From positions 1-13,540 of the forward strand of contig JANOQV010000267.1 in NCBI GenBank assembly GCA_031414955.1: DNA of 13,540 nt, in the 5' to 3' direction. The DNA comes from Pedosphaera sp. Its GTDB lineage: Bacteria; Verrucomicrobiota; Verrucomicrobiia; Limisphaerales; SIBH01. Every line of letters starts with the position of its first letter. Position 1 is the first letter of the stretch. The notes beneath the pieces are model-generated. The model was not told the DNA's origin and ran no database searches. It was given only the letters and a program-made list of their open reading frames with translations. Both the position numbers and the translations under genes were made by a program. Below are positions 1-13,540 of this stretch, piece after piece.

Positions 1-139
1 GCCAAATCCACGAACTGGGCCACCACGCCACCGCCGCCCTGCGCCGGCTGCGCCGCCGTCCGAAAATCATCGCCGCCTGTTGGAAACAATCCCAACTCCC
101 TTTGTGACTCGGTGTCACTCTATTGTACAAGTCTCAATA
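1..139 (+). mobile_element. Right end of an IS630-family insertion sequence (transposase C-terminus 3..107, partial; terminal sequence ending ...TCAATA)
   Basis: Frame starting at 3 reads QIHELGHHATAALRRLRRRPKIIAACWKQSQLPL* (TGA 105-107), which resembles C-termini of IS630 DDE transposases (recognition from memory). It is followed by GTCACTCTATTGTACAAGTCTCAA-TA; IS630 elements insert at and duplicate TA. The left end is outside the window. Confidence 0.7.
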
Positions 140-573
140 AGCGTTGCGCCGGCACGTCTCCCGCCGGGAGGATCGAATGGTCGCGCGCCGCCGGTGGAGG
201 ATTTGGGGACGCGAAAACCAACGCTCTCGTCGAAAAGGCGGCCGTCAGAAAAGTGACGGCGCTTCTCAAACGGCGCGGTTTCAGCGTCAGGTCACGGGAG
301 AACGATCGAATCGGCTATGACTTGGACGCCACCAAAGGCAGGACGGAATTGCATGTGGAGATCAAAGGAGTGTCTGGTGAGGGGACGCAGTTCCTCATCA
401 CGAAAGCCGAACTGGCCAGGGCAACTTCAGATTCTGCATTTCGGCTGATGGTGGTGACGCAAGCCCGGACGCAGAATGCACAAGTGCATGAATTCCACGG
501 CCGGGACTTGAAGCGCCGCTTTGCTCTGACGCCGGTGAGTTATTTTGCAAAGAGCAAGCGAGAGTTTCCCTGA
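112..573 (+). CDS. DUF3883 / NO VEIN C-terminal-like PD-(D/E)XK nuclease domain protein, probably a 5'-truncated remnant
   Basis: Motifs GFGDAKTNALVEKAAV, GYDL, HVEIKG, FLITKAE fit the DUF3883 pattern. The ORF start at 112 lies inside the putative IS630 end, so native coding sequence probably begins after ~139. Confidence 0.7.
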   Translation: MSLYCTSLNKRCAGTSPAGRIEWSRAAGGGFGDAKTNALVEKAAVRKVTALLKRRGFSVRSRENDRIGYDLDATKGRTELHVEIKGVSGEGTQFLITKAELARATSDSAFRLMVVTQARTQNAQVHEFHGRDLKRRFALTPVSYFAKSKREFP

Positions 574-685
574 AATGCGAAAGGCCTCCGGGAAACCCAG
601 AAGCCCAACGCCGACCGGAGATTTCCAGTCCGACTTGAGAACAATATGATTGAGCGAAGCCAGAGCATCAACAGAGCATAAATTC

Positions 686-3600
686 ATGAAGCATTGCCTC
701 ACTGGAAAATTGATCCTCCTCATCGCTGCATTGCTCGCGGCGGTCATCGGCGCGGAGGTTCCGCTAGCGCCCGGCATTCCCAAACCCGATGACGCGCCGA
801 AGCCGCGGACGCCGGAGGAGAGCGCGGCGGCCTTCAAGCTGCCCGAGGGCTTTCGCATGGAAGTGGTCGCGAGCGAGCCGCTCATCGCGTCGCCCTCAGC
901 GGTGTGCTGGGACGAGCGTGGGCGGATGTTCGTGAGCGAACTGCACGGCTACAATCTCGAAGGCCAGCTCGACATCGAGGAGTTGAACAAGTCCGGGAAG
1001 CTCGACACGCAAGTGCGCCGTGTGCAGGCGGACGAGAAGTTCAAGCAGGCCGCGCAGCGCGGAACCTACGGCGTGGTGAAGATGCTGCTCGATACGAACG
1101 GCGACGGACGCATGGACAAAGCCGTCGTGTGGGCGACGAATCTGCCGGCGGCCTATGGGCTGGTCGCGGCGCGTGGCGGCGTCATCGTGGCCTGCGCGCC
1201 GGACATCGTGTTCCTCGCGGATCGGGATGGCGACGGCGTGGCGGAGGTGCGCGAAGTGTTGTTCACGGGCTTTCGCACGGGCGCGCTGGAGCGTGGCATC
1301 AATGCGCCGCTCTGGAATGTGGACGGCTGGATTTATCTCGGACGCGGCCACGGCGGCGGAACGATCAGCGGCCCGCATCTCGCTGCGCCGGTCCGGCTGA
1401 CGGACTCGGACTTTCGCATTCGCGCGGATGGCAGCGCGATTGAACCGGTGACCGGCGGCACGCACACGCTGGGCTTCGCGTTCACCGAGGCGGGCGAACG
1501 GTTCGTCTCCACGACTTCGGTGCCGGGCGTCTTCATCGCGCCGCTGCCGTCGCATTACCTCGCGCGGAATCCCGACGCGGCGACGCCCTCGGTGAGTGTC
1601 CCCACGGGGGACAAACGGGCCTACCAGATTTCGAAGCCGCATCCGTGGCGGCAGAAGCGCGCCGATGACGCGGCCTACGCGAAGTTTTATCGCGACCGCT
1701 ACGGCGCGGGGGACAGCGAGGCGGGTGGATGGTTCACGTCGGCGTGCGGGCCGCTTGTGTATCAGGACAACGTGCTGCCGGGATTGCGCGGGCAATACTT
1801 CGTATGCGAGCCGTCGGGCAACATCATCCATCGCTCCGTGATCGAAGCCGATGGTTCCGCGTTGAAACTCCGCCGCGCGCCGGGCGAGGAACATTCGGAG
1901 TTCGCCGCCAGCCGCGACGGCTGGAGTCATCCCATCCGCCTGCAACACGGGCCGGACGGCTGCATCTGGGTCGTGGATTTCTACCGCGAAATCATCGAGG
2001 ACTACTCGGCCATTCCCCGGCACCTGCAACAGCAATACGGACTTTACGCTGGCCATGATCGCGGACGGATTTATCGCCTCACTCACCGCGATGCGCGGCA
2101 CGCGCCTCCGTCCGACTTGAACACGCTCGACGCAAAGTCGCTCGCGCGCGAAGTGGGCAGTCCGCTGTTCTGGCGGCGCGAGACCGCGCAACGGCTGCTG
2201 GTCGAACGCAACCTGGAGCGCCGAGCATCGCTCGGCCTGAAGGAATCATCGGGTTCCGTGCCGAGCAATGCTCGGCACTCCGAAGATGTCGCCACACCCG
2301 AGCTGCGTGCGGCGCTCAAGGACGCCGAACCCTTCGCTGTCATCAGCACGCTGCGGACACTGGATGGTCTTGGCGCGCTCGCGCCGTCGGATGTTCGCCC
2401 GTTCATGAGCCACAGCGAGGCCGCTGTCCGTGTCCACGCGCTGCAACTGGCCGACCGTTGGCTGGCCGCCGACTCCGCGACGCTGGAGGCAACGCTCGCC
2501 GCCGCTGCATCGGAGAAGAACCCGCGCGTGGCGCTGCAATTCGCCTTGAGCCTCGGCGAAGCCCGCGACCCGCGCGCCTTCGCCCTGCTGGCCCGCTACG
2601 CCCGCGAGCGGCTGGACATTCGCTGGATGGACGCCGCGCTGCTTTCCTCGTTGCACAGGCGCGGCGGCGAGATGCTTGTGGAACTCCTGCGCGAGCCCGT
2701 CGCCTCCGTGTCCTTCCTCGACAAGCTCGCCGGCACCATCGCCGCCCGGCGCGATGCCACCGAATTCGCACAAGTCCTCAAAGCCATCAGCCCATCCGCG
2801 CCGGAAGGACAGGCCGCAATCCTGAACAGTCTCGCCAAAGGCCGCGCCAATGCCCAACGGCTTCCGCTCGATGATGCCGCCGCCGATCGCGCGCTCGCCA
2901 CGCTGTCGGCCAGCACAGCGCCTGAAGTCCGCCGCGCCGCGCGAATGCTTGAGGAGACTTTCGTTTCATCGCCGCCGGATGAGGAAGCCATCGCCGGCCT
3001 TCCGCCGCTCGCGCCGGCGGTCAGCGAGGAAACATTCCGCCGCTACGTGGCCGTGTTGTCCGCTCCGCGCGACCCGAAGCGTGGCCACGAGCTATTCCTC
3101 TCCGCGTGCGCGACCTGCCATCGCGTCGGCGACGAGGGCACGCACTTTGGTCCCGACTTGATGGGCGAGCTGGGCATGGCCGAGGAAACACTCGTCCGAC
3201 ATCTGCTGCTGCCCTCGGAGCGGATTCGTCCGGGCTTTGAAACGATTTTGGTCGAGACTCTGGCCGGGACTTCGTTTGCCGGATTGTTGCACGAAGACGA
3301 AACCACCAGCCTGACGCTGCGCCAGCCCGGCGGCGTGGAAATAATTGTCCTGCGCAAAGACGTGAAGGGCGTGCGCCGCTCCGGCGTGTCGCTCATGCCG
3401 TCGTTCGCCGAGACGCTGCCACCAGCGGATGTGGCGAACGTCCTCGCGTGGCTGCGCGGCCAGCTCAAAGCCCCGCCGCCCGGCCGCGTCGTGCTCTTCG
3501 ACGAGGAACCCGGCTTTGCCGCGCTGCTCAACGAAGGCGGTGGCCGGGCCGAGGTGCTCTCCGCCAAACCGTTTTCCGGAGCGCTCTGCCTCAGCATCGC

Positions 3601-3970
3601 ACCACCACAGCGATTCAGCGCGCGCATCGCCGGATGGAATTACCGGATTGTCGAAAAGCCAGCGGCGACGAATGAGTTTCGTTTCCTGCGCCTCGCCTGG
3701 CGCGCGAGCGGCGACGGCGTGATGATCGAACTCGCCGCCAACGGCCAATGGCCCAAAGCGGAGGATCTGCGTCGCCGCTACTTCGCCGGCAAGAACACCA
3801 CCGCCTGGCAGGCGCGTGAAGTGCGAGCCGCAGCCCCGGCCGAGTGGCGCGCAGAGGTTTTCGATCTCTGGAAGGACTGCGGCACCTTCACCCTCACCGG
3901 CCTGGCACCGACCGCGCTGGGCGGGGCGGCGTTCTTCGACCATATCGAGCTAATGCAAATGAACCCTTGA
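686..3970 (+). CDS. PVC-type heme-binding CxxCH protein (putative membrane-bound dehydrogenase: beta-propeller, HEAT-like repeats, cytochrome c, extra C-terminal domain)
   Basis: Signal peptide from ATG 686 (MKHCLTGKLILLIAALLAAVIGA). N-terminal FKLPEGFRMEVVASEPLIASPSAVCWDERGRMFVSE is typical of the Planctomycete/Verrucomicrobia dehydrogenase domain. Helical Ala/Leu-rich middle. CATCH heme motif at 3107-3121 with downstream SLMP (candidate axial Met). Confidence 0.88.
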   Translation: MKHCLTGKLILLIAALLAAVIGAEVPLAPGIPKPDDAPKPRTPEESAAAFKLPEGFRMEVVASEPLIASPSAVCWDERGRMFVSELHGYNLEGQLDIEELNKSGKLDTQVRRVQADEKFKQAAQRGTYGVVKMLLDTNGDGRMDKAVVWATNLPAAYGLVAARGGVIVACAPDIVFLADRDGDGVAEVREVLFTGFRTGALERGINAPLWNVDGWIYLGRGHGGGTISGPHLAAPVRLTDSDFRIRADGSAIEPVTGGTHTLGFAFTEAGERFVSTTSVPGVFIAPLPSHYLARNPDAATPSVSVPTGDKRAYQISKPHPWRQKRADDAAYAKFYRDRYGAGDSEAGGWFTSACGPLVYQDNVLPGLRGQYFVCEPSGNIIHRSVIEADGSALKLRRAPGEEHSEFAASRDGWSHPIRLQHGPDGCIWVVDFYREIIEDYSAIPRHLQQQYGLYAGHDRGRIYRLTHRDARHAPPSDLNTLDAKSLAREVGSPLFWRRETAQRLLVERNLERRASLGLKESSGSVPSNARHSEDVATPELRAALKDAEPFAVISTLRTLDGLGALAPSDVRPFMSHSEAAVRVHALQLADRWLAADSATLEATLAAAASEKNPRVALQFALSLGEARDPRAFALLARYARERLDIRWMDAALLSSLHRRGGEMLVELLREPVASVSFLDKLAGTIAARRDATEFAQVLKAISPSAPEGQAAILNSLAKGRANAQRLPLDDAAADRALATLSASTAPEVRRAARMLEETFVSSPPDEEAIAGLPPLAPAVSEETFRRYVAVLSAPRDPKRGHELFLSACATCHRVGDEGTHFGPDLMGELGMAEETLVRHLLLPSERIRPGFETILVETLAGTSFAGLLHEDETTSLTLRQPGGVEIIVLRKDVKGVRRSGVSLMPSFAETLPPADVANVLAWLRGQLKAPPPGRVVLFDEEPGFAALLNEGGGRAEVLSAKPFSGALCLSIAPPQRFSARIAGWNYRIVEKPAATNEFRFLRLAWRASGDGVMIELAANGQWPKAEDLRRRYFAGKNTTAWQAREVRAAAPAEWRAEVFDLWKDCGTFTLTGLAPTALGGAAFFDHIELMQMNP
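2215..2281. repeat. REP-like inverted doublet inside the heme-protein CDS
   Basis: Arm 2215-2236 GGAGCGCCGAGCATCGCTCGGC matches the reverse complement of 2260-2281 GCCGAGCAATGCTCGGCACTCC at 20/22. Each arm is itself palindromic (GCCGAGC...GCTCGGC). The reading frame is preserved. Confidence 0.8.
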
Positions 3971-3977
3971 GATGAAA

Positions 3978-5696
3978 TCAACGACCGGGATCGGTGAGGC
4001 GGGTGAGTTTCAACGACGAGGAATCGAACCAGACTTCGCCGGGGCCGGTGGCTTCGCAGAAAATTTCCAGATCGGCGGCGGGTTGTCGCAGATCGATCTC
4101 GCACGCGAGTCCGGTCCAGTTCGTGCCGGCGGCGGGAGACAGTGGCGCGTAGGCGAGGTTGCCGCTTTCGCCGCCGGGGCGGTAGTCAGCCCGGCGACGT
4201 CCGTCCCAGCCCCAGTCGGGACTCAGGGAGCGTTTGCGGGAGCTGCGGACGCGCAGGCCGGCAGTGATTTGATTCGTTGGACCCGGCGTTGCGGGAACGG
4301 AACGAACGCGACCTTCCAGCCGGTATCGTCCTTCTTCGAGCCATACCAGAGTGACCCAGGCGCCGCTGGCCGCGGTCTCCGCGCGGACAACGAGCGACGC
4401 GGAGTTGGTCGGTTGGAGAAGGACGGGAGCACCGGCGTTCGTCCGGCTGGCCCAGCCGTTCAACACGCGTGATTGACCGGCGAGAAGCGGGACGAGATTC
4501 GTGATGCCCGCGAGTTGCTGATCAATGGAGGCGAGGCGTTCAGTCATTCGTTGCACCAGTTCGTGGACGCTCTGCGCGTGAACCGACACCGGGGTGACTT
4601 CGGAAGCATTCGTCGTGCGCGCGAACGCGGCGGCGAGCGGAGCCGTGAGTTCCGTGAAGCGGTTGCTGAGGGCGGCGGGTTGGAAGAAGGAACCCCGAAA
4701 ATCCCGGATGCGATCAAGCACCTGCCGCCGGCCTTCGGGCAGCGAGAGCACGGCGGTCGCGACGAGACCATCGCCACTGGCGAGCACGGGTGCGTCGGGG
4801 AGGATGTAGGTCTGGTCCAGTCCGTGCGGCAGGAAGACGAGCCGCTGCTGGCTGCGGTCGAAGAAGACGCGATAGTTGTTCGCGTGAAAGGCGTAGCCGT
4901 CGCCGTTCCAGGCCAGAATATCGAGCGCGAGCAGGCGCGTGAACCGGTCCAGATCGAGCACCGCCCCGAGGCGCTCCCAACGCTGCGCGGCCTTCGGCTC
5001 GCGGGCGGCGGCGAGCAGCGCGGCGGGGCCGAAGCGGTTTTCCAACGGTTCGCCAAAGGCCAGTTCGAGCGGTTGATCAAGGTCGGTCAGCAGCGGCCCT
5101 TCGTAGAGCGGTCCTTTCGCGTCGGGAAAATGGCGGCGGATGAAGCGGCGATCCCAGCCTTCGAGAAACACGTAAACGCCCAGCGCCCGGCCATTCAGTT
5201 CCGCCGTGATGTGGCCGGCGCGCGGCACGGGCACGCCGCCGCGCACGTAAAGTTCGCGCGCCACTTTCTCGCTCAGGCGCGTGGGGTCTTGCGCGGAGTT
5301 GTTGAGGGAAATTTTTTCGAGACCGTGAAAGAGTTGCTTCGAGCCGTGCTTGGAAAAATTGAGCGTGAAGGACGGCTTGGAATCCACCGGACGAAAACTG
5401 CCGAGGCTGCCCTTGAGATGAATCGCGACGTTGGTCCAGACGTTCGTTCCTTCGCGCACCGTGCAGAGGACTTCGGGCCGGTCGCTCCGAGGCGTCTCTC
5501 GTTGAAAGCTGTAACTGCGCAGAGCCTCCATCGCCGCCGGTGTGGCGTCGATTCGCAGGTGCCGGATGGTCGGGTTGGTGAAGAGGTCGTCGCTGGGGCT
5601 GGGAACTTCCGCCCAGGCTGGGACCAACGCGAACAGCACGGCGAATAAGCCGGAGTTCTTCCACCGTTGGCGGAAGGCGATGAGCAGTAAGTTCAT
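3978..5696 (-). CDS. CotH kinase family protein, probably secreted, with C-terminal beta-rich domain
   Basis: Motifs VAIHLKGSLGSF, KPSFTLNF, KISLNNSAQDP, LNGRALGVYV, WNGDGY..ANNYRVF and FLPHGLDQT match the CotH atypical kinase family. Hydrophobic N-terminus from ATG 5696 (the ORF track begins at 5711). Confidence 0.85.
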   Translation of the reverse strand: MNLLLIAFRQRWKNSGLFAVLFALVPAWAEVPSPSDDLFTNPTIRHLRIDATPAAMEALRSYSFQRETPRSDRPEVLCTVREGTNVWTNVAIHLKGSLGSFRPVDSKPSFTLNFSKHGSKQLFHGLEKISLNNSAQDPTRLSEKVARELYVRGGVPVPRAGHITAELNGRALGVYVFLEGWDRRFIRRHFPDAKGPLYEGPLLTDLDQPLELAFGEPLENRFGPAALLAAAREPKAAQRWERLGAVLDLDRFTRLLALDILAWNGDGYAFHANNYRVFFDRSQQRLVFLPHGLDQTYILPDAPVLASGDGLVATAVLSLPEGRRQVLDRIRDFRGSFFQPAALSNRFTELTAPLAAAFARTTNASEVTPVSVHAQSVHELVQRMTERLASIDQQLAGITNLVPLLAGQSRVLNGWASRTNAGAPVLLQPTNSASLVVRAETAASGAWVTLVWLEEGRYRLEGRVRSVPATPGPTNQITAGLRVRSSRKRSLSPDWGWDGRRRADYRPGGESGNLAYAPLSPAAGTNWTGLACEIDLRQPAADLEIFCEATGPGEVWFDSSSLKLTRLTDPGR

Positions 5697-5738: not shown

Positions 5739-5917
5739 AGAGCCAGTCTGAAAATACGGAGGCGGAGTGTGCCCGTCCTCGGGCGCAGCAAGGTGATGAC
5801 TTGGAGCGCGTCGGAAAAACCCATACCCGCTGAGGTTCGCACGTTGCTGCGCCCGAGGACGGGCGCACTCCGGGGTTGGCCGCTGTCGCTGCCCCAGTGA
5901 CTTTGCAGACAGGCTCT
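5739..5917. mobile_element. MITE-like element (~180 bp) with terminal inverted repeats enclosing a REP-like inverted pair
   Basis: Outer IR 5739-5754 AGAGCCAGTCTGAAAA vs 5902-5917 TTTGCAGACAGGCTCT (14/16). Inner IR 5763-5791 vs 5844-5872 (28/29). Lies between the divergent cotH-like and MBL genes. Confidence 0.65.
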
Positions 5918-7587: not shown

Positions 7588-7658
7588 CAAAAGACGGGCG
7601 CGCTCCACGACCTGGCGGACTTCCCGGCGGCCCCGTGACTCGCGAAGTGCCTTGGAGT
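7588..7658. repeat. Truncated REP-like element abutting the ureC breakpoint
   Basis: 7593-7606 GACGGGCGCGCTCC matches 5858-5871 GACGGGCGCACTCC (13/14). The opposite arm appears to start at TGGAGT (7653-7658) and is cut off where ureC homology begins. Confidence 0.5.
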
Positions 7659-8324
7659 ATCCTGCACGACCTCGGCGCCATCAGCATGATGAGTTCGGAT
7701 TCGCAGGCGATGGGCCGCATTGGCGAAGTCATCACGCGCACCTGGCAGACGGCCGACAAGATGAAGCAACAGCGCGGGCGATTGCCGGGCGAGAGGGGCG
7801 ACAACGACAATCTCCGCATCAAGCGTTACATCTCGAAATACACCATCAACCCCGCGCTCGCCCACGGCATGAGCCACATCATCGGCTCCATCGAAGTCGG
7901 CAAGCTCGCCGACCTCGTGCTCTGGAAGCCTGCGTTCTTCGGTGCCAAACCGGAGATGGTGATCAAGGGTGGCGTTATCGCGTGGGCGCAAATGGGCGAT
8001 CCCAACGCCAGCATCCCGACGCCGCAGCCGGTTTTCATGCGCCCGATGTTCGGCGCGTTCGGCCGCGCGGTCGGCGGCACGTCGATCGCGTTTGTCAGCC
8101 AGCTCTGCAAGGCGAAGGGCGTGGCGAAGGGCTACGGAATCACCAAGCGCATCGAAGCCGTAAAAGGCTGCCGCGAAGTCACCAAGCGCGATCTGAAGTG
8201 GAACGACGCGCTGCCCAAGATCAGCGTGGACCCGGAGACCTACGAAGTCCGCGCTGATGGAGAATTGCTGAAGTGCGAGCCAGCGAAAATCCTGCCGCTG
8301 GCGCAGCGGTATCAACTGTTTTGA
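7659..8324 (+). pseudogene. ureC: Urease subunit alpha, C-terminal fragment only (~220 aa)
   Basis: [62 protein letters not shown] and [10 protein letters not shown] are unmistakable UreC. Homology starts abruptly at 7659. The N-terminal ~60% of the subunit and ureA/ureB are absent upstream. Confidence 0.9.
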
Positions 8325-8339
8325 CCTTTCGTCGCTGCC

Positions 8340-9197
8340 ATGCCACCGCGCAAAGTCACCCCTCTCATTAGCACCGGGCTTCAGCCCGGTGTGGGGACGG
8401 CGAACGGATGCCCAACCGTTTTAACGGTTTTTCGCGACGACATGAAAACCGCTGAAGCGGTTGAAGACTTCGCGGGCGTGGAAATCACCCGGCTGAAGTC
8501 GGGTGCTAATGAGAAGGGAAACGTCCGAGCTTCGAGCAGCGACTGGCTCATCTGGCAGCTCGCCGACTCGGCTTTTCCCACTGGCGGCTTCGCGCATTCG
8601 GGCGGACTGGAAGCGGCAAGGCAGCATGGCGAAGTGCGCGGTGGTGAAACTCTGGAGGAATATCTTCGAGTGTCGCTAAACCAACTGACTCACGCGGCGA
8701 TGCCGTTCGTCCACGCCACCTTTTCCGGCGCGCATTCTTTCAAGGAAACGGATCAGCGTTGCGATGCCTTCTTCTCCAATCACGTTGCGAACCGGGCGAG
8801 CCGTGCGCAAGGGCAGGCCTTTCTGGCCTCGGCGGAACGAATCTTTGGCGGCGAGGACTTGAAGTCCTGGCGCGAGCAATTGCTGACCAGCGATGCGCCC
8901 GCTCATTTTGCGCCGGTGTTCGGAGTGGTCACGCGACTGCTTTCCATCGAGGCCTCGATGGCCGCGAGGCTGTTTGTTTTCACCCAACTGCGCGGCAGCA
9001 TCAGCGCCGCAGTGCGGTTGAACATCATCGGTCCGGGCGAGGGGCAGGCGATTCAACGCCGGCTGACCGATGCAGCAGAAAGCGCGGCCCGCCGCTTCGG
9101 CCTGGTGGCACTCGAAGACGTTGCACAAACCGCGCCGTTGTTCGATCTCTGGCAGGGCACGCAGGATCGCCTCTACTCGCGCCTCTTCCAGAGCTGA
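8340..9197 (+). CDS. ureF: Urease accessory protein UreF, with a repeat-derived N-terminal insertion
   Basis: WQLADSAFPTGGFAHSGGLEAA, ASRAQG, SAAVRLNIIGP..GQ and C-terminal LYSRLFQS. Directly follows ureC. Confidence 0.9.
   Translation: MPPRKVTPLISTGLQPGVGTANGCPTVLTVFRDDMKTAEAVEDFAGVEITRLKSGANEKGNVRASSSDWLIWQLADSAFPTGGFAHSGGLEAARQHGEVRGGETLEEYLRVSLNQLTHAAMPFVHATFSGAHSFKETDQRCDAFFSNHVANRASRAQGQAFLASAERIFGGEDLKSWREQLLTSDAPAHFAPVFGVVTRLLSIEASMAARLFVFTQLRGSISAAVRLNIIGPGEGQAIQRRLTDAAESAARRFGLVALEDVAQTAPLFDLWQGTQDRLYSRLFQS
8364..8513. repeat. 150-bp REP/BIME-like palindromic element in frame within ureF
   Basis: IR 8364-8391 vs 8486-8513 (25/28). Two internal palindromes AACCGTTTTAACGGTT and AACCGCTGAAGCGGTT. 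Spans codons 9-58 of the ORF. Confidence 0.85.
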
Positions 9198-9210: not shown

Positions 9211-9276
9211 GCGGCGCAGCGGGCGGGCACGGCGACGGTGGATGTTCATTACGACCTGGCCGACGCGGACAGCAGC
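9211..9276 (+). pseudogene. 66-bp relic of a paralog of the DGR target gene N-terminus (direct repeat of 10386-10451)
   Basis: 59/66 nt identical. AAQRAGTATVDVHYDLADADSS vs AVQRAGTASVDIYYDLADADSS (18/22 aa). Confidence 0.85.
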
Positions 9277-9335: not shown

Positions 9336-9581
9336 ATGACAACGACTGCGGAAGTCAATGGACTCACCGGGCAACTGGCCGAGTTGGTGAAGCAAGTTCA
9401 GGCCGGCCACGAGGTGCTGTTGACGCAAGGCCACAAGCCCGTGGCCCGGCTCGTGTCGGCGGCGGAAAAAGAGATTGCCCCCGGAGCACCTCTCCCGATT
9501 CGTTCTTTCAAGGGCCGCCGAGTTTTGACCCCTTCCATTTCCCAGGCGGAACTGGCCGGAGAAATGTTTGACCGCCCATGA
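9336..9581 (+). CDS. Type II antitoxin, Phd/YefM family
   Basis: 81 aa. LAELVKQVQAGHEVLLTQGHKPVARLV matches the Phd/YefM pattern. ATGA overlap with the downstream PIN gene. Confidence 0.85.
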   Translation: MTTTAEVNGLTGQLAELVKQVQAGHEVLLTQGHKPVARLVSAAEKEIAPGAPLPIRSFKGRRVLTPSISQAELAGEMFDRP

Positions 9582-10006
9582 CCGGGTTGGACTGCAACAT
9601 CCTCGTTCAACTTGCCCTGGCTGATCATCCCGCCAACGCGGCCACGGCCGCCGCCGTTCAAGCCGAAGCCCAGCGTGGTGAGCCGTTGGTCTTTCCCTCG
9701 CTGGTCGTGACTGAATTCCTGCATGTCGTCACGGATGCGCGGCGGTTCGATCCGCCTCTGACCATGATCGAGGCCTTGGACTGGATGGAGGAACTTCTGG
9801 CGAACCCTGCCTTCAAACTGCTGGAACCGACGCCGGAAAGCCTGCGACAAACTTTTCTTTGGATGCGGCAGTTCAACCTGGGCCGCAAACGCATCCTCGA
9901 CACTCATCTCGCCGCTGTTCTTCACACCGCCGGAGTGCGCCGCCTGCTCACGTCCAATCCCGGCGACTTCACGGTCTTTGGCGTCCTCGAAACAGTCGTG
10001 CCGTGA
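9578..10006 (+). CDS. vapC: PIN-domain VapC-family toxin
   Basis: 142 aa. LDCNILV, VVTEF, ILDTHLAA and LLTSNPGDF supply the PIN acidic residues. Coupled to the antitoxin. Confidence 0.88.
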   Translation: MTGLDCNILVQLALADHPANAATAAAVQAEAQRGEPLVFPSLVVTEFLHVVTDARRFDPPLTMIEALDWMEELLANPAFKLLEPTPESLRQTFLWMRQFNLGRKRILDTHLAAVLHTAGVRRLLTSNPGDFTVFGVLETVVP

Positions 10007-10283: not shown

Positions 10284-11513
10284 GTGAACCTCCGCCCGGC
10301 TCTGATCACCCTGCTGGCACTCGCAATGTTTGCCCACGGACTGGGCCGGGCGCTGGCGGCGGCGCCGGTGGTTTCCAATGTGCGGGCGGTGCAGCGGGCG
10401 GGGACGGCCTCGGTGGATATTTATTACGACCTGGCGGACGCGGACAGCAGCGTGCTGACGGTGAGCGTGGCCGTGTCCACCAATGGTGGAGCGAATTACA
10501 CGGCAGGAGCGGCGAGTTTTTCGGGGGCGCTGGGCGCCGGTCTGGCGCCGGGGAACAACCAGCGGATTATCTGGAACGCCGGGGTGGACCTGCCCGCCAG
10601 GTTGTTCTCGAATGTGCGGGTGAGCGTGACCGCTTCGGATGACCCGGCCCCCTCCGGCATGGCGCTCATTCCCGCTGGGAGCTTCACGATGGGCACGTTC
10701 ACAAATGATGGAGGCGGCAGCGATGAACTGCCGCTGCACTCCGTCTATGTCTCGGCCTTTTACATGGACCGGACGGAAGTGACGAAGGCGTTATGGGATG
10801 AGGTGTACAACTGGGCCACGAACCACGGCTACAGTTTTGCTTACGCGGACAGCGGTCAGGGGAAGGCGGCGAATCACCCGGCGCAGCGCATGACTTGGCA
10901 TGACGCGGTGAAGTGGTGCAATGCGCGGAGCGAGAAGGAGGGGCGGGTGCCGGCGTATTACACAAACGCGGGGCAGACGGCGGTGTATCGCAGCGGGCAG
11001 CTCAGCGTGAGCAATTCCTGGGTGAAGTGGGATCGGGGCTATCGTTTGCCGACGGAGGCGGAGTGGGAAAAGGCGGCGCGGGGCGGAACCGGCGGGCATC
11101 GGTTTCCCTGGGGCGACACGGACACGATCACGCACGGCCGGGCGAACTACAACAGCAGTGCCAGCTATGCCTACGATGTCAGTTCCACGCGGGGCTATCA
11201 TCCGACGTTTAACGATGCGGTGACTCCTTACACCAGTCCGGTGGGGTATTTTGCGCCGAATGGTTACGGGCTTTACGACATGGCGGGGAATGTGTGGGAG
11301 TGGAACTGGGATTGGTATTCGAGCACGTATTACAGTTCCTCGCCGGGAAGCGATCCGCGTGGTCCCACAACAGGCTCGCACCGCGTGCTTCGGGGCGGCT
11401 GTTGGTACATCAACGCGATCTACTGCCGGTCGGCGTTCCGCATCTACCGCACTCCGACGTCCCGGTACAACGGCTTTGGGTTCCGTTCCGTTCTCCCCCC
11501 AGGTCAGCTATGA
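10284..11513 (+). CDS. DGR target protein: signal peptide, beta-rich (Ig-like?) domain, FGE-sulfatase/SUMF1 (CLec-fold) domain with C-terminal VR
   Basis: Likely start GTG 10284 (MNLRPALITLLALAMFAHGLGRALA/AAP). Motifs MALIPAGSFTMG, FYMDRTEVT, YRLPTEAEWEKAARGG, NGYGLYDMAGNVWEW, RVLRGG..GFRSV. The longer ORF from 10020 runs through a REP element. Confidence 0.92.
   Translation: MNLRPALITLLALAMFAHGLGRALAAAPVVSNVRAVQRAGTASVDIYYDLADADSSVLTVSVAVSTNGGANYTAGAASFSGALGAGLAPGNNQRIIWNAGVDLPARLFSNVRVSVTASDDPAPSGMALIPAGSFTMGTFTNDGGGSDELPLHSVYVSAFYMDRTEVTKALWDEVYNWATNHGYSFAYADSGQGKAANHPAQRMTWHDAVKWCNARSEKEGRVPAYYTNAGQTAVYRSGQLSVSNSWVKWDRGYRLPTEAEWEKAARGGTGGHRFPWGDTDTITHGRANYNSSASYAYDVSSTRGYHPTFNDAVTPYTSPVGYFAPNGYGLYDMAGNVWEWNWDWYSSTYYSSSPGSDPRGPTTGSHRVLRGGCWYINAIYCRSAFRIYRTPTSRYNGFGFRSVLPPGQL
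11372..11502 (+). repeat. DGR variable repeat (VR)
   Basis: Ungapped match to 13144-13274 at offset 1772, with 20 mismatches all opposite TR adenines. Encodes [43 protein letters not shown]. Confidence 0.97.
11476..11513 (+). promoter_or_regulatory. Candidate IMH (initiation of mutagenic homing) region
   Basis: 27-nt invariant tail 11476-11502 shared with TR, then divergence (VR GTCAGCTATGA vs TR CTCAACCCGGC), as expected for IMH vs IMH*. Confidence 0.6.
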
Positions 11514-11677
11514 GCATAAACAGAAAAAGTGGAGCGGAGCAGGCGAGGCGGAGCGAGGGACGAGCACAGCCTGACTGCGGAGCGACTGGGAGAAGGCAAG
11601 CGAGTGAAAATTGAGAAAGAAAAGCCCGCGCAGCGGTCGCGAATTTTTGAAAGTCCTGCTTTGTCTGTGAAGCAAAC

Positions 11678-12139
11678 GTGCAACTGAAACTGTTTATTCT
11701 GCCGGTGAAGAACCTGTCCGCCCCCGAGGCGGAGATGAATGTCTTTCTGCGCTCGCACCGGGTGCTGGCGGTGAAGAAGGAGTTCGTGTGCGACGGCGAA
11801 AACTCGTTCTGGACGTTTTGCGTGGAATATCTGGAGTCCGCGCCCACCGCCACGGGCGCGAGCAGTCAGAGCAACCGGCCGAAGGTGGATTACAAAGAGG
11901 TGCTCAAGCCGGAGGAGTTTGAAGTATTCAGCCGGCTGCGGGAGTGGCGCAAGGGCGTGGCGGAGAAGGAAGGCGTGCCGGTGTATGTGGTGTTCACCAA
12001 CGAACAACTGGCGGAGATGGTGAAGAAGAAGGTGAGCAGCCAGGCGCAACTGAATCAGATCGAAGGCGTGGGCGACGCTCGCGTGGAGAAATACAGCGCG
12101 GCCGTGCTGGAGCGGCTGGTTTTCAACCCGGTGCCCTGA
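11678..12139 (+). CDS. HRDC-domain DGR accessory protein
   Basis: C-terminal FSRLREWRKGVAEKEGVPVYVVFTNEQLAEMV...LNQIEGVGDARVEKY is a typical HRDC domain. Its stop overlaps the RT start (TGATG at 12137-12141). Confidence 0.9.
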   Translation: MQLKLFILPVKNLSAPEAEMNVFLRSHRVLAVKKEFVCDGENSFWTFCVEYLESAPTATGASSQSNRPKVDYKEVLKPEEFEVFSRLREWRKGVAEKEGVPVYVVFTNEQLAEMVKKKVSSQAQLNQIEGVGDARVEKYSAAVLERLVFNPVP

Positions 12140-13428
12140 TGAAACGCCACGGACAACTGATGCCAAAGATCGCGGACGCGGAGAACCTGCGGCTGGCGTT
12201 CTGGAAAGCGGCCAAGGGCAAGCGCGGCCAGGCCGATTGCGTGGCGTTCGGGGAGCGGCTGGATGACAACCTCGACGCCTTGAGGGTGGAATTGCTGGCC
12301 GGCGACGTGCCAGTGGGCGACTACCACTATTTCAGGGTGCATGACCCCAAGGAGCGGCTGATTTGCGCGGCGACGTTCCGCGAGCGGGTATTGCACCACG
12401 CGCTGATGAACGTGTGCGAGCCAGTGCTGGAGCGCGCGGCGGTGTTTGACAGCTACGCCTGCCGCAAGGGCAAGGGACGGCTGCTCGCAGTAGAGCGGGC
12501 GCAGGGTTACGCGCGGACGCACCGGTGGTTTCTGAAGATGGACATCCGCAAGTATTTCGATTCGGTTCATCAGACGACGCTGCGGGAGTTGCTGGAGCGG
12601 AAGTTCAAAGACCCGGTGTTACTGGGCGTATTTGACCGCATCCTCGGCAGCTATCACACCGCGCCCGGACGCGGCCTGCCGATTGGGAACTTGACCTCGC
12701 AGCATTTTGCGAATTTTTACCTCGACCCGCTAGACCGGTTCCTCAAGGAGACGCTCGGGCGCGGGGCGTACGTACGCTACATGGATGACTTCGTGGTGTG
12801 GGGCGGGAGCGGGTGCGAACTGCGCGGCGTGTGCGAACAGGCGCGCGCATTTCTGGCGGCGGAATTGAAGCTGGAATTGAAGGCCAACACCGCCATCAAC
12901 CGGACGGCTTTCGGGATGGATTTTCTGGGCTACCGCCTGTTCCCCGGCACGGTGCGGCTGGCGCGGCGGAGCAAGGTGCGATTGGCGCGAAAGTTTCAGC
13001 GGTATGAAGCGGCGCATCTGCGAGGGGAATGGAGCGAACTGGTTTTGCAGCAGCGGATGCAGGCGCTGCTGGCCTTCGTGATGCCGGTGGAGAGCGGAGC
13101 CTTTCGGCGGCATGTCCTGCAACGCTTTGGGGTGGCGGCCAAAAGGCTCGAACCGCGTGAATCGGGGCGGCAGTTGGAACAACAACGCGATCAACTGCCG
13201 GACGGCGAACCGCAACAACAACACTCCGACGAACCGGAACAACAACATTGGGTTCCGTTCCGTTCTCCCCCCAGCTCAACCCGGCTGCCGGAGGGCAGCG
13301 GGGCTGACCCGGCGGCCATCCTGTCCCCGGCGGGAGTTCCGCCGGGGCAAATACGCAACATCAAGCCGCCCGGTGCCAGTAGGCTGGCAGAGCCGGTCAA
13401 AAACTCCGGGCGGTTTCTTTCTATTTGA
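12139..13428 (+). CDS. DGR reverse transcriptase (429 aa, including a ~100-aa tail read through TR)
   Basis: [55 protein letters not shown] (DGR IGxxxSQ signature), [16 protein letters not shown] 12139 is coupled to the HRDC stop. Confidence 0.96.
13144..13274 (+). repeat. DGR template repeat (TR)
   Basis: AAC-rich copy of VR (13 AAC and 1 AAT codons in the VR frame; 36 adenines), located within the RT ORF. Confidence 0.97.
13281..13426 (+). ncRNA. Structured 3' spacer of the putative TR-RNA, ending in a terminator-like stem and T-rich tract
   Basis: Stems GCTGCC-GGAG-GGCAGC (13284-13299) and CCCCGGCGG/CCGCCGGGG (13325-13347). AAGCCGCCCGG/CCGGGCGGTTT (13363-13416) encloses TGCCAG-TAGG-CTGGCA and is followed by CTTTCTATTT. 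Confidence 0.5.
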
Positions 13429-13432
13429 TTTT

Positions 13433-13540
13433 ATGAAGCGACCGCTGGAGCAACTGCGGAATTGGGGAGCCGTGCTGCTCCTCGGCTTCACAGCAGCGCT
13501 GTCCACGGAGGCCGCGACCAGCACCGGCGTTTCACCGATC
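13433..13540 (+). CDS. 5' end of a probable secreted protein (partial, runs off the window)
   Basis: [36 protein letters not shown] has a basic N-region, hydrophobic core and TEA/A cleavage-like site. ATG lies 4 nt after the RT stop. Confidence 0.6.

Follow-up and report, generated by a model that had tools for sequence, protein, structure and literature searches.

The mechanistic literature found on DGRs concerns Bordetella phage BPP-1, whose reverse transcriptase (RT) shows no activity unless Avd is present; the survey published on DGR RNA elements is confined to the 278 DGRs with Avd. Complementarity between the RNA primer and the IMH has been proposed for BPP-1 (PMC5703328), and a stem-loop of the GRNA type following the VR has been described (PMC3240598), although such a stem-loop is not universal in DGRs. 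In PMC5758913, HRDC and avd occur together in about half of 14 DGRs, and the sole Verrucomicrobia row of its table is of the Avd type. PVC and Verrucomicrobiota hosts are mentioned for the cellular DGRs of clade 5 (PMC8144416, PMC10907252). The literature searched offered no mechanism for Avd-independent DGRs.

The window, by which we mean the whole stretch of 13,540 nucleotides that was analysed, very probably carries an intact chromosomal DGR of the HRDC class, with the order target-HRDC-RT-TR, belonging to a probable Verrucomicrobiota bacterium of freshwater sediment and working as proposed below. The repeats, their adenine-only bias, the placement of the RT, the gene order and the covarying cis elements are direct observations. 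The locus joins a catalogued kind, Architecture C, and its gene order, its target class and cellular targets with signal peptides are all already in print. Its features are as follows.

9211..9276, plus strand: 66-nt remnant of the target 5' region (89% identity to 10386-10451), lying at the insert's left edge
9336..10006, plus strand: pair of Phd/YefM-like antitoxin and PIN toxin, in the same insert and outside the DGR core; PIN over the cut-off, Phd (E 4.1e-6) below it
10284..11513, plus strand: target gene, 409 aa, GTG start; predicted signal peptide at about aa 1-25, FnIII-like domain at aa 26-121, FGE-type CLec domain at aa 125-403, VR C-terminal
11368..11502, plus strand: VR, 20 variable codons, aa 366 to 398 of the target
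11502..11508, plus strand: IMH, fully complementary to the primer segment of the spacer (13303-13309)
11539..11578, plus strand: hairpin downstream of the VR, with a 10-bp outer stem and a conserved tandem-GA mini-hairpin (11553-11565); putative target-recognition structure
11678..12139, plus strand: HRDC accessory gene, 153 aa, pI 6.8; N-terminal domain of about 55 aa and HRDC at aa 81-145 (PF00570, E 5.8e-19)
12139..13428, plus strand: DGR reverse transcriptase, 429-aa ORF; core about aa 1-330, beyond which the ORF runs across TR and spacer in a different frame
13129..13140, plus strand: upstream strand of the stop duplex, putative cPRT-stop, pairing with 13311-13322; from the RT 3' end, not avd
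13140..13274, plus strand: TR; IMH* follows from 13274
13275..13416, plus strand: structured spacer RNA, with 5' stem-loop 13280-13303, primer 13303-13309, stop strand 13311-13322, a second stem-loop (13323-13348) with AAA after it, a single-stranded stretch and a long stem (13363-13416)
13434..13540, plus strand: beginning of an exported multi-domain protein of 1348 aa, whose continuation lies on contig C252 (34-4080); no VR

VR (11372-11502) and TR (13144-13274) align without gaps over 131 nt, at an offset of 1772. All 20 mismatches occur at TR adenines (20 of 36 adenines vs 0 of 95 other positions; Fisher p 3.7e-14), which have become T in 13 cases, C in four and G in three, and they alter 15 codons. 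Prolonging the match to 11368/13140 adds one more adenine difference, for 21 of 39. The TR holds 14 AAY codons and six other A-initial codons, whose product is 1.196e20 variants, a theoretical ceiling; the figure given for Treponema TvpA in PMC5758913 is likewise 10^20. Recomputation thus returned both the adenine-only differences and the figure of about 10^20 variants claimed in a preliminary description of this DNA. An adenine-masked scan of the whole genome with the TR matched 95 of 95 positions at the VR (11372-11502) only, followed by 81 of 95 on contig C12 and 55 of 95, so that it found no further remote target at full non-A identity. The paralogue on C12, with 14 of 95 non-A mismatches and lacking the hairpin motif, was rejected as a current target of the TR.

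DGR-type RTs are characterized by YxDD together with an (L/I/V)GxxxSQ-type motif, and the RT ORF contains IGNLTSQ and YMDD. Its best PDB match, 8ub7_A, has an E of 1.3e-45, whereas the best group II RT reaches 2e-15; 8ub7_A is labelled only "Reverse transcriptase", but shares its GIPIGSLTSQL motif with the Bordetella phage RT at locus L053. A tree of 41 RTs separates 30 DGR-type rows from 11 group II-like rows with support of 100/100, a phylogenetic check that bears out the earlier assignment to the DGR type, and places the window RT inside a 25-row clade supported at 99/99. The tree carries no retron reference; retron and Drt3a families score far lower by profile and in PDB searches. Nor does the protein show the GxPQG and YADD motifs or the maturase placement of a group II intron RT, as which it earns 102 bits against a cut-off of 300. 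The RT clade is mostly Verrucomicrobiota, in line with the PVC-like affinity previously claimed, and a search by HRDC similarity gave 33 loci, 24 of them labelled Verrucomicrobiota, 26 with an RT match and 17 with an A-biased TR/VR pair. TIGR02600, considered as a Verrucomicrobia marker, scores below cut-off in this genome and was set aside.

Set beside the BPP-1 layout of 10.1101/2023.10.23.563531, the Avd-less clade keeps the same RNA arrangement, including an IMH-complementary spacer primer and a covarying stop duplex. The primer of the window pairs in a 7-nt run with the VR end vs 1 nt with the TR end. Complementarity between spacer and IMH reaches at least 6 nt in 20 of 23 VRs and is 1 nt in 23 of 23 TRs, and the primer and IMH sequences change together between lineages. 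The stop duplex is paired in 87% of 264 cells, with five pairs showing two-sided change, compared with 0 of 500 shuffles and 29-65% for slid controls; these covariation controls take no account of kinship, and the structures are drawn from the window sequence. Its energy does not discriminate, being equalled by 10% of random 32-mers in the window and by 1-76% across 25 loci. Two-sided change occurs in 18 of 33 predicted pairs of the spacer RNA (15 sequences), whose stem-loop 13280-13303 sits at the position of the Avd-binding hairpin of BPP-1. Rfam returned three snoRNA matches, all sub-threshold and taken as chance, and no family at threshold. The hairpin after the VR is paired in 96% of cells, five pairs showing two-sided change (12 selected sequences), and its tandem-GA form is unusual. 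A general tie between this hairpin and HRDC is not supported, since 9 of 31 VRs in the clade lack the motif, as do the two Prosthecochloris targets. A promoter scan of the plus strand, itself uninformative, found no promoter-like site.

By analogy with BPP-1, from which we infer priming, termination and homing, a transcript across the RT 3' end, TR and spacer would fold round the RT, and the spacer segment ending near 13309 would act in cis as the primer for cDNA at the 3' end of the TR. The RT would misincorporate opposite adenines, at about 55%, and synthesis would halt at the duplex 13129-13140/13311-13322. The RNA primer could then pair with the IMH, a better match than IMH*, aided by the hairpin after the VR, and the cDNA would replace the VR. 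The protein made is predicted to be exported and to combine FnIII-like and CLec parts, and its variable, putative binding site is rich in Tyr, Phe, Ser and Gly; candidate extracellular partners are a particle, a polysaccharide, another cell or a phage.

Pooled over 21 alignments, TR adenines in the VRs are kept as A in 309 cases and read T in 185, G in 157 and C in 39; a mutation bias specific to HRDC was rejected, since the spectrum follows the in vitro order of BPP-1. In 11 relatives, 225 of 231 diagnostic non-A sites of the VR agree with the TR of the same locus; at L007, the figure is 1 of 5. This agreement supports homing since divergence from the relatives, and in the window 0 of 26 fourfold-degenerate non-A sites differ between VR and TR. 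To that extent the recent activity read from the sequence earlier stands; of present-day variation, the assembled contigs gave no sign. Contigs of run X1, possibly the source sample, carry a VR allele identical to the window. Those of run X2, where the organism is present, include among the pieces listed none with zero differences over the VR and one with 49 differences that is unassignable, and the contigs of runs X3 and X5 hold relatives only. The DGR could instead be silent at present or recently dead, its VR frozen at the last homing event. Beyond the single allele seen, this is favoured by the decay of the host urease operon (a ureC fragment) and by broken RTs, both in the second DGR of the genome and in many relatives; several of the latter (L010, L014, L020, L022 and L037 among them) are partial or broken, so decay is common in the clade. 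The intact RT, HRDC and target ORFs with their catalytic motifs, the intact stop duplex, primer/IMH and hairpin, and the unchanged fourfold-degenerate sites make silence somewhat unlikely.

The preliminary description called the DGR complete, and RT, TR, VR and target are indeed intact, but it overlooked the HRDC accessory gene (11678-12139), the very gene that defines the class. The stop codon of this gene overlaps the RT start. A model of its HRDC domain fits the RecQ HRDC domain 1wud at an rmsd of 0.8 over 66 columns; the N-terminal domain has neither a Pfam nor an Atlas match, and its model has a pLDDT of 44-57. With an HRDC accessory gene inside the cassette and avd absent from it, the locus falls in Architecture C and outside Architecture B (Avd). 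The genome contains a single Avd match (PF22296), on contig C8 and none in the cassette, and contig C8 bears a second DGR of the Avd type with a frameshifted RT. Searches by tblastn with four Avd queries gave no match at the window locus, nor in any of 60 HRDC loci, some of them duplicated.

Co-folding of RT and HRDC scored 0.59 vs 0.02 for the best of three controls, with contact agreement of at least 74% and partner pLDDT of at least 77. The mark applied was reached by 116 of 157 solved pairs and 2 of 215 mismatched ones, and scores of 0.60 or less held only 18 of the solved pairs and both mismatches, so the model weakly favours pairing. The HRDC protein may be the working partner of the RT instead of Avd. 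More specifically, and tentatively, with chances somewhat short of even, the HRDC protein of this clade may have taken over the Avd job, binding both the RT and the stem-loop that comes first in the spacer; RT, HRDC and RNA would then form a complete Avd-independent mutagenic machine with the tandem-GA hairpin after the VR as its target signal. HRDC is not simply a substitute for Avd, since the two coexist in some DGRs, locus L054 and those counted in PMC5758913 among them. That coexistence, the Avd on C8, Avd above cut-off in 10 of 25 genomes with HRDC cassettes and the stem-loop kept at the Avd-binding position would all suit a cassette supplied with Avd in trans by the DGR on C8, leaving HRDC a side role such as recognition of a DNA hairpin or help in strand invasion. 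We consider such borrowing unlikely, given the co-fold, the HRDC loci devoid of Avd matches and the 11 of 25 genomes with no Avd match at E<=0.001, six of which carry A-biased TR/VR pairs (these are MAGs, completeness not given).

The target matches Pfam FGE-sulfatase over residues 125-403 (E 4.8e-54), and its top Foldseek match is TvpA 2y3c, to which it aligns with Z 12.5 and rmsd 4.1 (196 aligned). Its N-terminus is hydrophobic, the best 17-residue hydropathy being 1.71 at residue 5 and at most 1.07 beyond residue 30, and the AF2 model has a helix at residues 4-23. Because of this hydropathy and an Ala-x-Ala pattern, a signal peptide is predicted and the target is probably exported, in agreement with the exported CLec/FGE-fold protein first described; the first Cys comes not before residue 212, so there is no lipobox. 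Residues 26-121 form a beta-sandwich resembling FnIII-type domains with a middling score (Z 6-7.2); this domain has no Pfam match, and its Atlas matches, at most 0.83, are leads only. The VR region (aa 341-400) has a pLDDT of 30-39 in the AF2 model. Solved homologues carry their variable residues on one exposed binding surface, and the analogy with BPP-1 suggests that those of this target are surface-exposed. Of 115 AAY-templated codons, 34 encode Tyr.

Targets of clade 5 DGRs in multicellular bacteria have been proposed to sense antigens for conflict or cell-death systems; such a role is improbable for this protein, which has a signal-peptide-like N-terminus, lacks any NTPase, vWA or TIR domain, and has no MoxR or TIR family among the neighbouring ORFs in Pfam and NCBIfam scans. 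In its favour, PMC10907252 assigns loci of the order TG-HRDC-RT-TR-TG, such as that of Thiorhodococcus drewsii, to clade 5A, together with MoxR systems, L024 and L032 have this order within the same 99/99 RT clade, and a toxin-antitoxin pair is adjacent. It is very unlikely that the target is an FGE-like enzyme with its active-site loop under diversification. Its best PDB sequence matches are indeed FGEs (E 2.7e-33), and the VR overlaps the FGE catalytic segment, but alignment with FGEs does not show two fixed active-site cysteines in the C-terminal loop. The cysteine loop (SFLCHESYCNRY in the FGE matches) is three residues shorter in the target, with its first cysteine not fixed, every NCBIfam enzyme family falls below cut-off, and FGE activity has been argued to be unlikely in DGR proteins (PMC6328139).

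The preferred reading, a cellular binding protein diversified by a chromosomal DGR, fits the surroundings of the cassette. The window contig and C252 are joined by a 141-nt contig overlap, and ureF and ureG, close together in 16 of 19 relatives, are separated here by an insert of about 8.4 kb that includes the cassette. An origin of the DGR in a prophage or prophage remnant, to which this insertion and the patchy occurrence of the element, in 23 of the 301 genomes from its order, might point, is largely refuted and hardly credible, for the 21 ORFs spread over the window and some 14 kb of C252 include no structural PHROG (capsid, tail, terminase) or integrase, neither flanking virion genes nor an Mtd-like tail-fibre target was found, and the RT is 83-90% identical to cellular relatives vs 39% for the best phage RT among 30 rows listed; the non-phage context claimed at the outset holds.

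A DGR specialist would find nothing surprising in the locus itself, whose class, gene order and target type are familiar; it is valuable as a clean test case in the little-studied Avd-less HRDC branch. Because this clade retains the same RNA layout, the question becomes what replaces Avd, and with all cis elements given by coordinates it is directly testable. Answering it would account for retrohoming without Avd and might yield a compact diversification tool. The locus also documents a family of modular, hypervariable binding proteins, predicted to be exported, in Verrucomicrobiota.

Compared with the DGR of BPP-1 (bRT-Avd), the cassette has the same RT family, A-specific T>G>C spectrum, spacer layout, primer-IMH complementarity and hairpin after the VR. 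The BPP-1 element, however, belongs to a phage, requires an Avd pentamer and has a TR upstream of the RT, a stop-duplex strand from avd and a stem of 7-10 bp with a GRNA loop, whereas the cassette has no avd, a TR downstream of the RT core and inside the RT ORF, and a longer hairpin with a tandem-GA core. Clade 5 DGRs (PMC8144416, PMC10907252) are likewise cellular and aquatic, with CLec targets that often have a signal peptide or transmembrane helix; the conflict-system neighbours of clades 5A-5E are not seen beside the cassette, which is linked to clade 5 via gene order alone. The Treponema denticola DGR (TvpA) shares an HRDC accessory, a cellular setting, the FGE-type CLec fold and about 10^20 variants, but has the order TG-TR-HRDC-RT and up to nine targets, mostly lipoproteins, unlike the target here without a lipobox. 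The HRDC-plus-Avd DGR of Prosthecochloris aestuarii pPAES01 is sister to the cassette clade in the RT tree (91/86), with FGE targets in both, and its HRDC protein is 28% identical to that of the cassette over 131 aa, N-terminal part included; it differs in having avd, a plasmid location, two targets and no tandem-GA motif after the VR. Pelodictyon phaeoclathratiforme BU-1 (Architecture C, CLec1/FGE-sulfatase; Wu et al. PMC5758913) shares with the cassette the TG-HRDC-RT-TR order, HRDC without avd, a C-terminal CLec1 VR in an FGE-sulfatase domain and a chromosomal location. It has an MPP/NTPase-fused target and five non-adjacent targets, whereas the cassette joins a signal peptide, an FnIII-like domain and an FGE domain in one current target.

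The diversity-generating retroelement (DGR) of the window has its components in the order target, HRDC, RT, TR, spacer.

Components of the DGR cassette
10284-11513, + strand: target gene, first in the order, with the variable repeat (VR) at 11372-11502
11678-12139, + strand: gene for an accessory HRDC protein (pI 6.8), between target and RT
12139-13428, + strand: reverse transcriptase (RT), with an ORF that runs on through the template repeat (TR, 13144-13274) and the spacer

The preliminary description, made from sequence alone, had reported a complete DGR, presumably of recent activity, diversifying a secreted protein of FGE/CLec fold, and all its figures were correct on recount. TR and VR align without gaps; 20 of 36 TR adenines are changed (13 to T, 4 to C, 3 to G), while none of the 95 bases of other kinds is (p 3.7e-14); 15 codons are altered, and 14 AAY plus 6 other A-initial codons allow a theoretical 1.2e20 protein variants. 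When the 313 contigs of the genome were scanned with adenines masked, no second full match to this TR appeared. The window is the entire contig C267, and runs on into C252 through a 141-nt overlap. Pooled across 21 TR/VR alignments, adenines were kept 309 times and replaced by T 185, G 157 and C 39 times, the same order (T>G>C) as measured for the Bordetella phage DGR, BPP-1 (10.1101/2020.04.29.068544). Other TR adenines are altered about 55% of the time, whereas the last (window 13273, a synonymous site there) is unaltered in 23 of 23 VRs; cDNA synthesis may begin there, or the site may be a boundary of integration. The TR/VR pair of one relative, L015 (5676-5809 and 7472-7606), aligns as two segments with a few-base offset between them, a pattern consistent with an indel at the AAC run.

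In a maximum likelihood tree of 41 RTs, made up of DGR-type and group II-like rows with no retron reference, the window RT falls among 30 DGR-type rows, split from 11 group II-like rows with support of 100/100. Nine loci were omitted: two duplicates, two copies of a broken RT from contig C8, and five short fragments. The window RT lies within a 25-row clade (99/99), with an HRDC+Avd DGR of Prosthecochloris as sister; the clade is a biased sample, because most members were collected by HRDC similarity. The nearest RTs are mostly titled Verrucomicrobiota. The top PDB match is 8ub7_A, at E 1.3e-45; the highest-ranking group II RT reaches 2e-15. Although the 8ub7_A entry bears no more specific label than 'Reverse transcriptase', its motif matches that of the Bordetella phage RT (L053). 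The RT ORF continues through TR and spacer for about 100 codons (window 13129-13428), as in most close relatives. This C-terminal tail is probably dispensable, judging from the frames of L021, L024, L032 and L035, which end before the TR.

The target begins with a hydrophobic stretch without a cysteine close by, followed at residues 26-121 by a beta-sandwich akin to FnIII domains (Z 6-7.2, middling). Its FGE-type CLec domain, in which the cysteine loop of FGEs is not conserved, has Treponema TvpA as top Foldseek match. The 20 variable residues lie between residues 366 and 398. Because the structure model is poor across the VR, their arrangement was taken from solved homologues (PMC6328139), by analogy with which they would cluster on the surface. 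Many Verrucomicrobiota targets start with a signal-peptide-like stretch and vary in their N-terminal modules, and proteobacterial targets in L024 and L032 lack such a start, in a comparison that includes uncertain starts and broken frames.

Among 33 HRDC loci, several of them broken or truncated at contig ends, 26 have an RT match, and A-biased TR/VR pairs are present at 17. Between the TRs of relatives and that of the window there are 231 non-A differences, and at 225 of these the relative's VR follows its own TR (L007 is the exception, at 1 of 5); this tracking supports homing after these lineages diverged. Both runs containing the stretch are freshwater sediment metagenomes from one study, compared as contigs. 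One has a VR allele identical to the window's; in the other, exact pieces flank the VR on both sides, and none is assignable to the VR among the matches listed.

A PHROG screen of 21 ORFs, drawn from the window together with about 14 kb of C252, found no virion or integrase family, in agreement with the proposed non-phage setting, and the proposed PVC-like setting is supported by a PVC-type CxxCH protein encoded in the window and scoring over the cut-off (TIGR02604, TIGR02603). Related HRDC genes are titled Verrucomicrobiota at 24 of 33 loci; the HRDC gene is patchily distributed, being present in 23 of the order's 301 genomes. Going by the PVC-type protein, these titles and those of the nearest RTs, Verrucomicrobiota is the probable host phylum. 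The cassette lies within an insert of about 8.4 kb separating ureF from ureG, which are near each other in 16 of 19 relatives. Also within the insert are a remnant of the target (66 nt), a Phd/PIN pair, an inverted repeat and an exported protein of 1348 aa.

The remnant, a copy of the target 5' region at window 9211-9276 directly after ureF, suggests either a previous target gene or rearrangement of the insert edge. The urease remnant spans window 7635-9197 and about 4190-4886 of the C252 stretch, with ureC reduced to its C-terminal 229 aa; no further ureC was found elsewhere in the assembly. The exported protein (window 13434-13540 and C252 stretch 34-4080) has Fn3, carboxypeptidase-regulatory-like and TSP3-like pieces, and its last part consists of repeated modules, each about 70 aa long with an 'FYR' end. 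Modules that look similar by eye occur at the N-terminus of DGR targets on C12 and in L020, L025 and L037, and may be a surface-sorting unit. An ORF at window 1-573, open at the contig start, has a NOV_C domain (PF13020), which we take to be a restriction-endonuclease-like family.

Long inverted repeats of the window
5763-5872: genome-wide REP-like repeat, 189 matches on 80 contigs
8359-8518: unique in the genome
10029-10182: 10 matches in the genome

Over the 140 nt 3' of the TR, the elements follow one another as in the spacer RNA structure of BPP-1 (10.1101/2023.10.23.563531): first a 5' stem-loop and primer segment, then a duplex with sequence upstream of the TR, a stem-loop followed by adenines, an unpaired single strand, and last a long terminal stem. 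Across 22 sequences, pairing in the upstream duplex reaches 87%, and 5 two-sided changes were counted (0/500 shuffles; slid controls 29-65%); single-locus energies are unremarkable. Because the sequences are related, this count, those that follow and the one for 13273 overstate independence. In 20 of 23 targets at least 6 nt of the primer segment (maximum 13 nt) are complementary to the VR end, against 1 nt only for the TR end, an asymmetry already proposed for BPP-1 (PMC5703328); in each spacer the segment was chosen among 60 positions as the best one, and this choice coincided with the conserved motif in 22 of 23. For the hairpin after the VR, 12 sequences selected for carrying it show 96% pairing and 5 two-sided changes. 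Its tandem-GA core follows 22 of 31 VRs, compared with 105 among 6200 random windows, and the hairpin is unlike those of phage DGRs, which are of GRNA type and 7-10 bp long (PMC3240598).

The gene at 11678-12139 is excluded as Avd, the usual DGR accessory protein, as it encodes an HRDC protein. Sixty HRDC loci, among them duplicates and 27 loci covered for only about 1.5 kb per side, gave no Avd match. Genome-wide, Avd scored over the cut-off in 10 of 25 draft genomes and gave no match in 11, of which 6 have A-biased pairs. A co-fold of RT residues 1-330 with HRDC scored 0.59 against 0.02 for the best control (contact agreement at least 74%, partner pLDDT at least 77) and was rated weak; of 157 solved pairs 116 reached the mark, as did 2 of 215 mismatched ones, and those reaching it at or below 0.60 were only 18 solved pairs and both mismatches. 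HRDC need not substitute for Avd, because both are found together in other DGRs, and the reading that it would take the place of Avd in an otherwise BPP-1-like ribonucleoprotein is somewhat less likely than not.

The single Avd of the genome belongs to a second, Avd-type DGR.

Second DGR
C8 11898-10365, - strand: avd, RT and TR, with an RT frame change near 11150-11216

Its VR is on C91 (17794-17909) and agrees with the TR at all 87 non-A sites, while 11 of the 29 adenines differ. The target there (L004 11743-12924) has a putative signal peptide, beta-sandwich and FGE domain, as in the window's target. The C8 RT has toxin-antitoxin-like pairs and an exported protein of 1295 aa on its flanks, resembling the window's neighbourhood. 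On C12 (L003 7491-10451, - strand), a 986-aa exported FGE paralogue lacks the hairpin motif; its end mismatches the window TR opposite 26 of the 36 adenines and 14 of the 95 other bases, and it is probably a former or orphan target.

A mechanism for HRDC-type or Avd-independent DGRs was not found in the openly accessible surveys, reviews and BPP-1 work covered; the terms HRDC, Avd and Verrucomicrob- are absent from the accessible part of PMC11661182. Verrucomicrobiota DGRs are mentioned, and clade 5 tied to conflict systems, in PMC10907252. Cellular DGR targets mostly have signal peptides or transmembrane helices (PMC8144416), and HRDC has been described in Treponema (PMC4891356). Of 372 DGRs in PMC5758913, which defines Architecture C, 14 have HRDC, and roughly half of these 14 lack avd; the single Verrucomicrobia row seen there is of Avd type, and Pelodictyon phaeoclathratiforme is listed as TG-HRDC-RT-TR, TG being the target gene. 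The window element is a real, intact, cellular DGR of this already known HRDC class.
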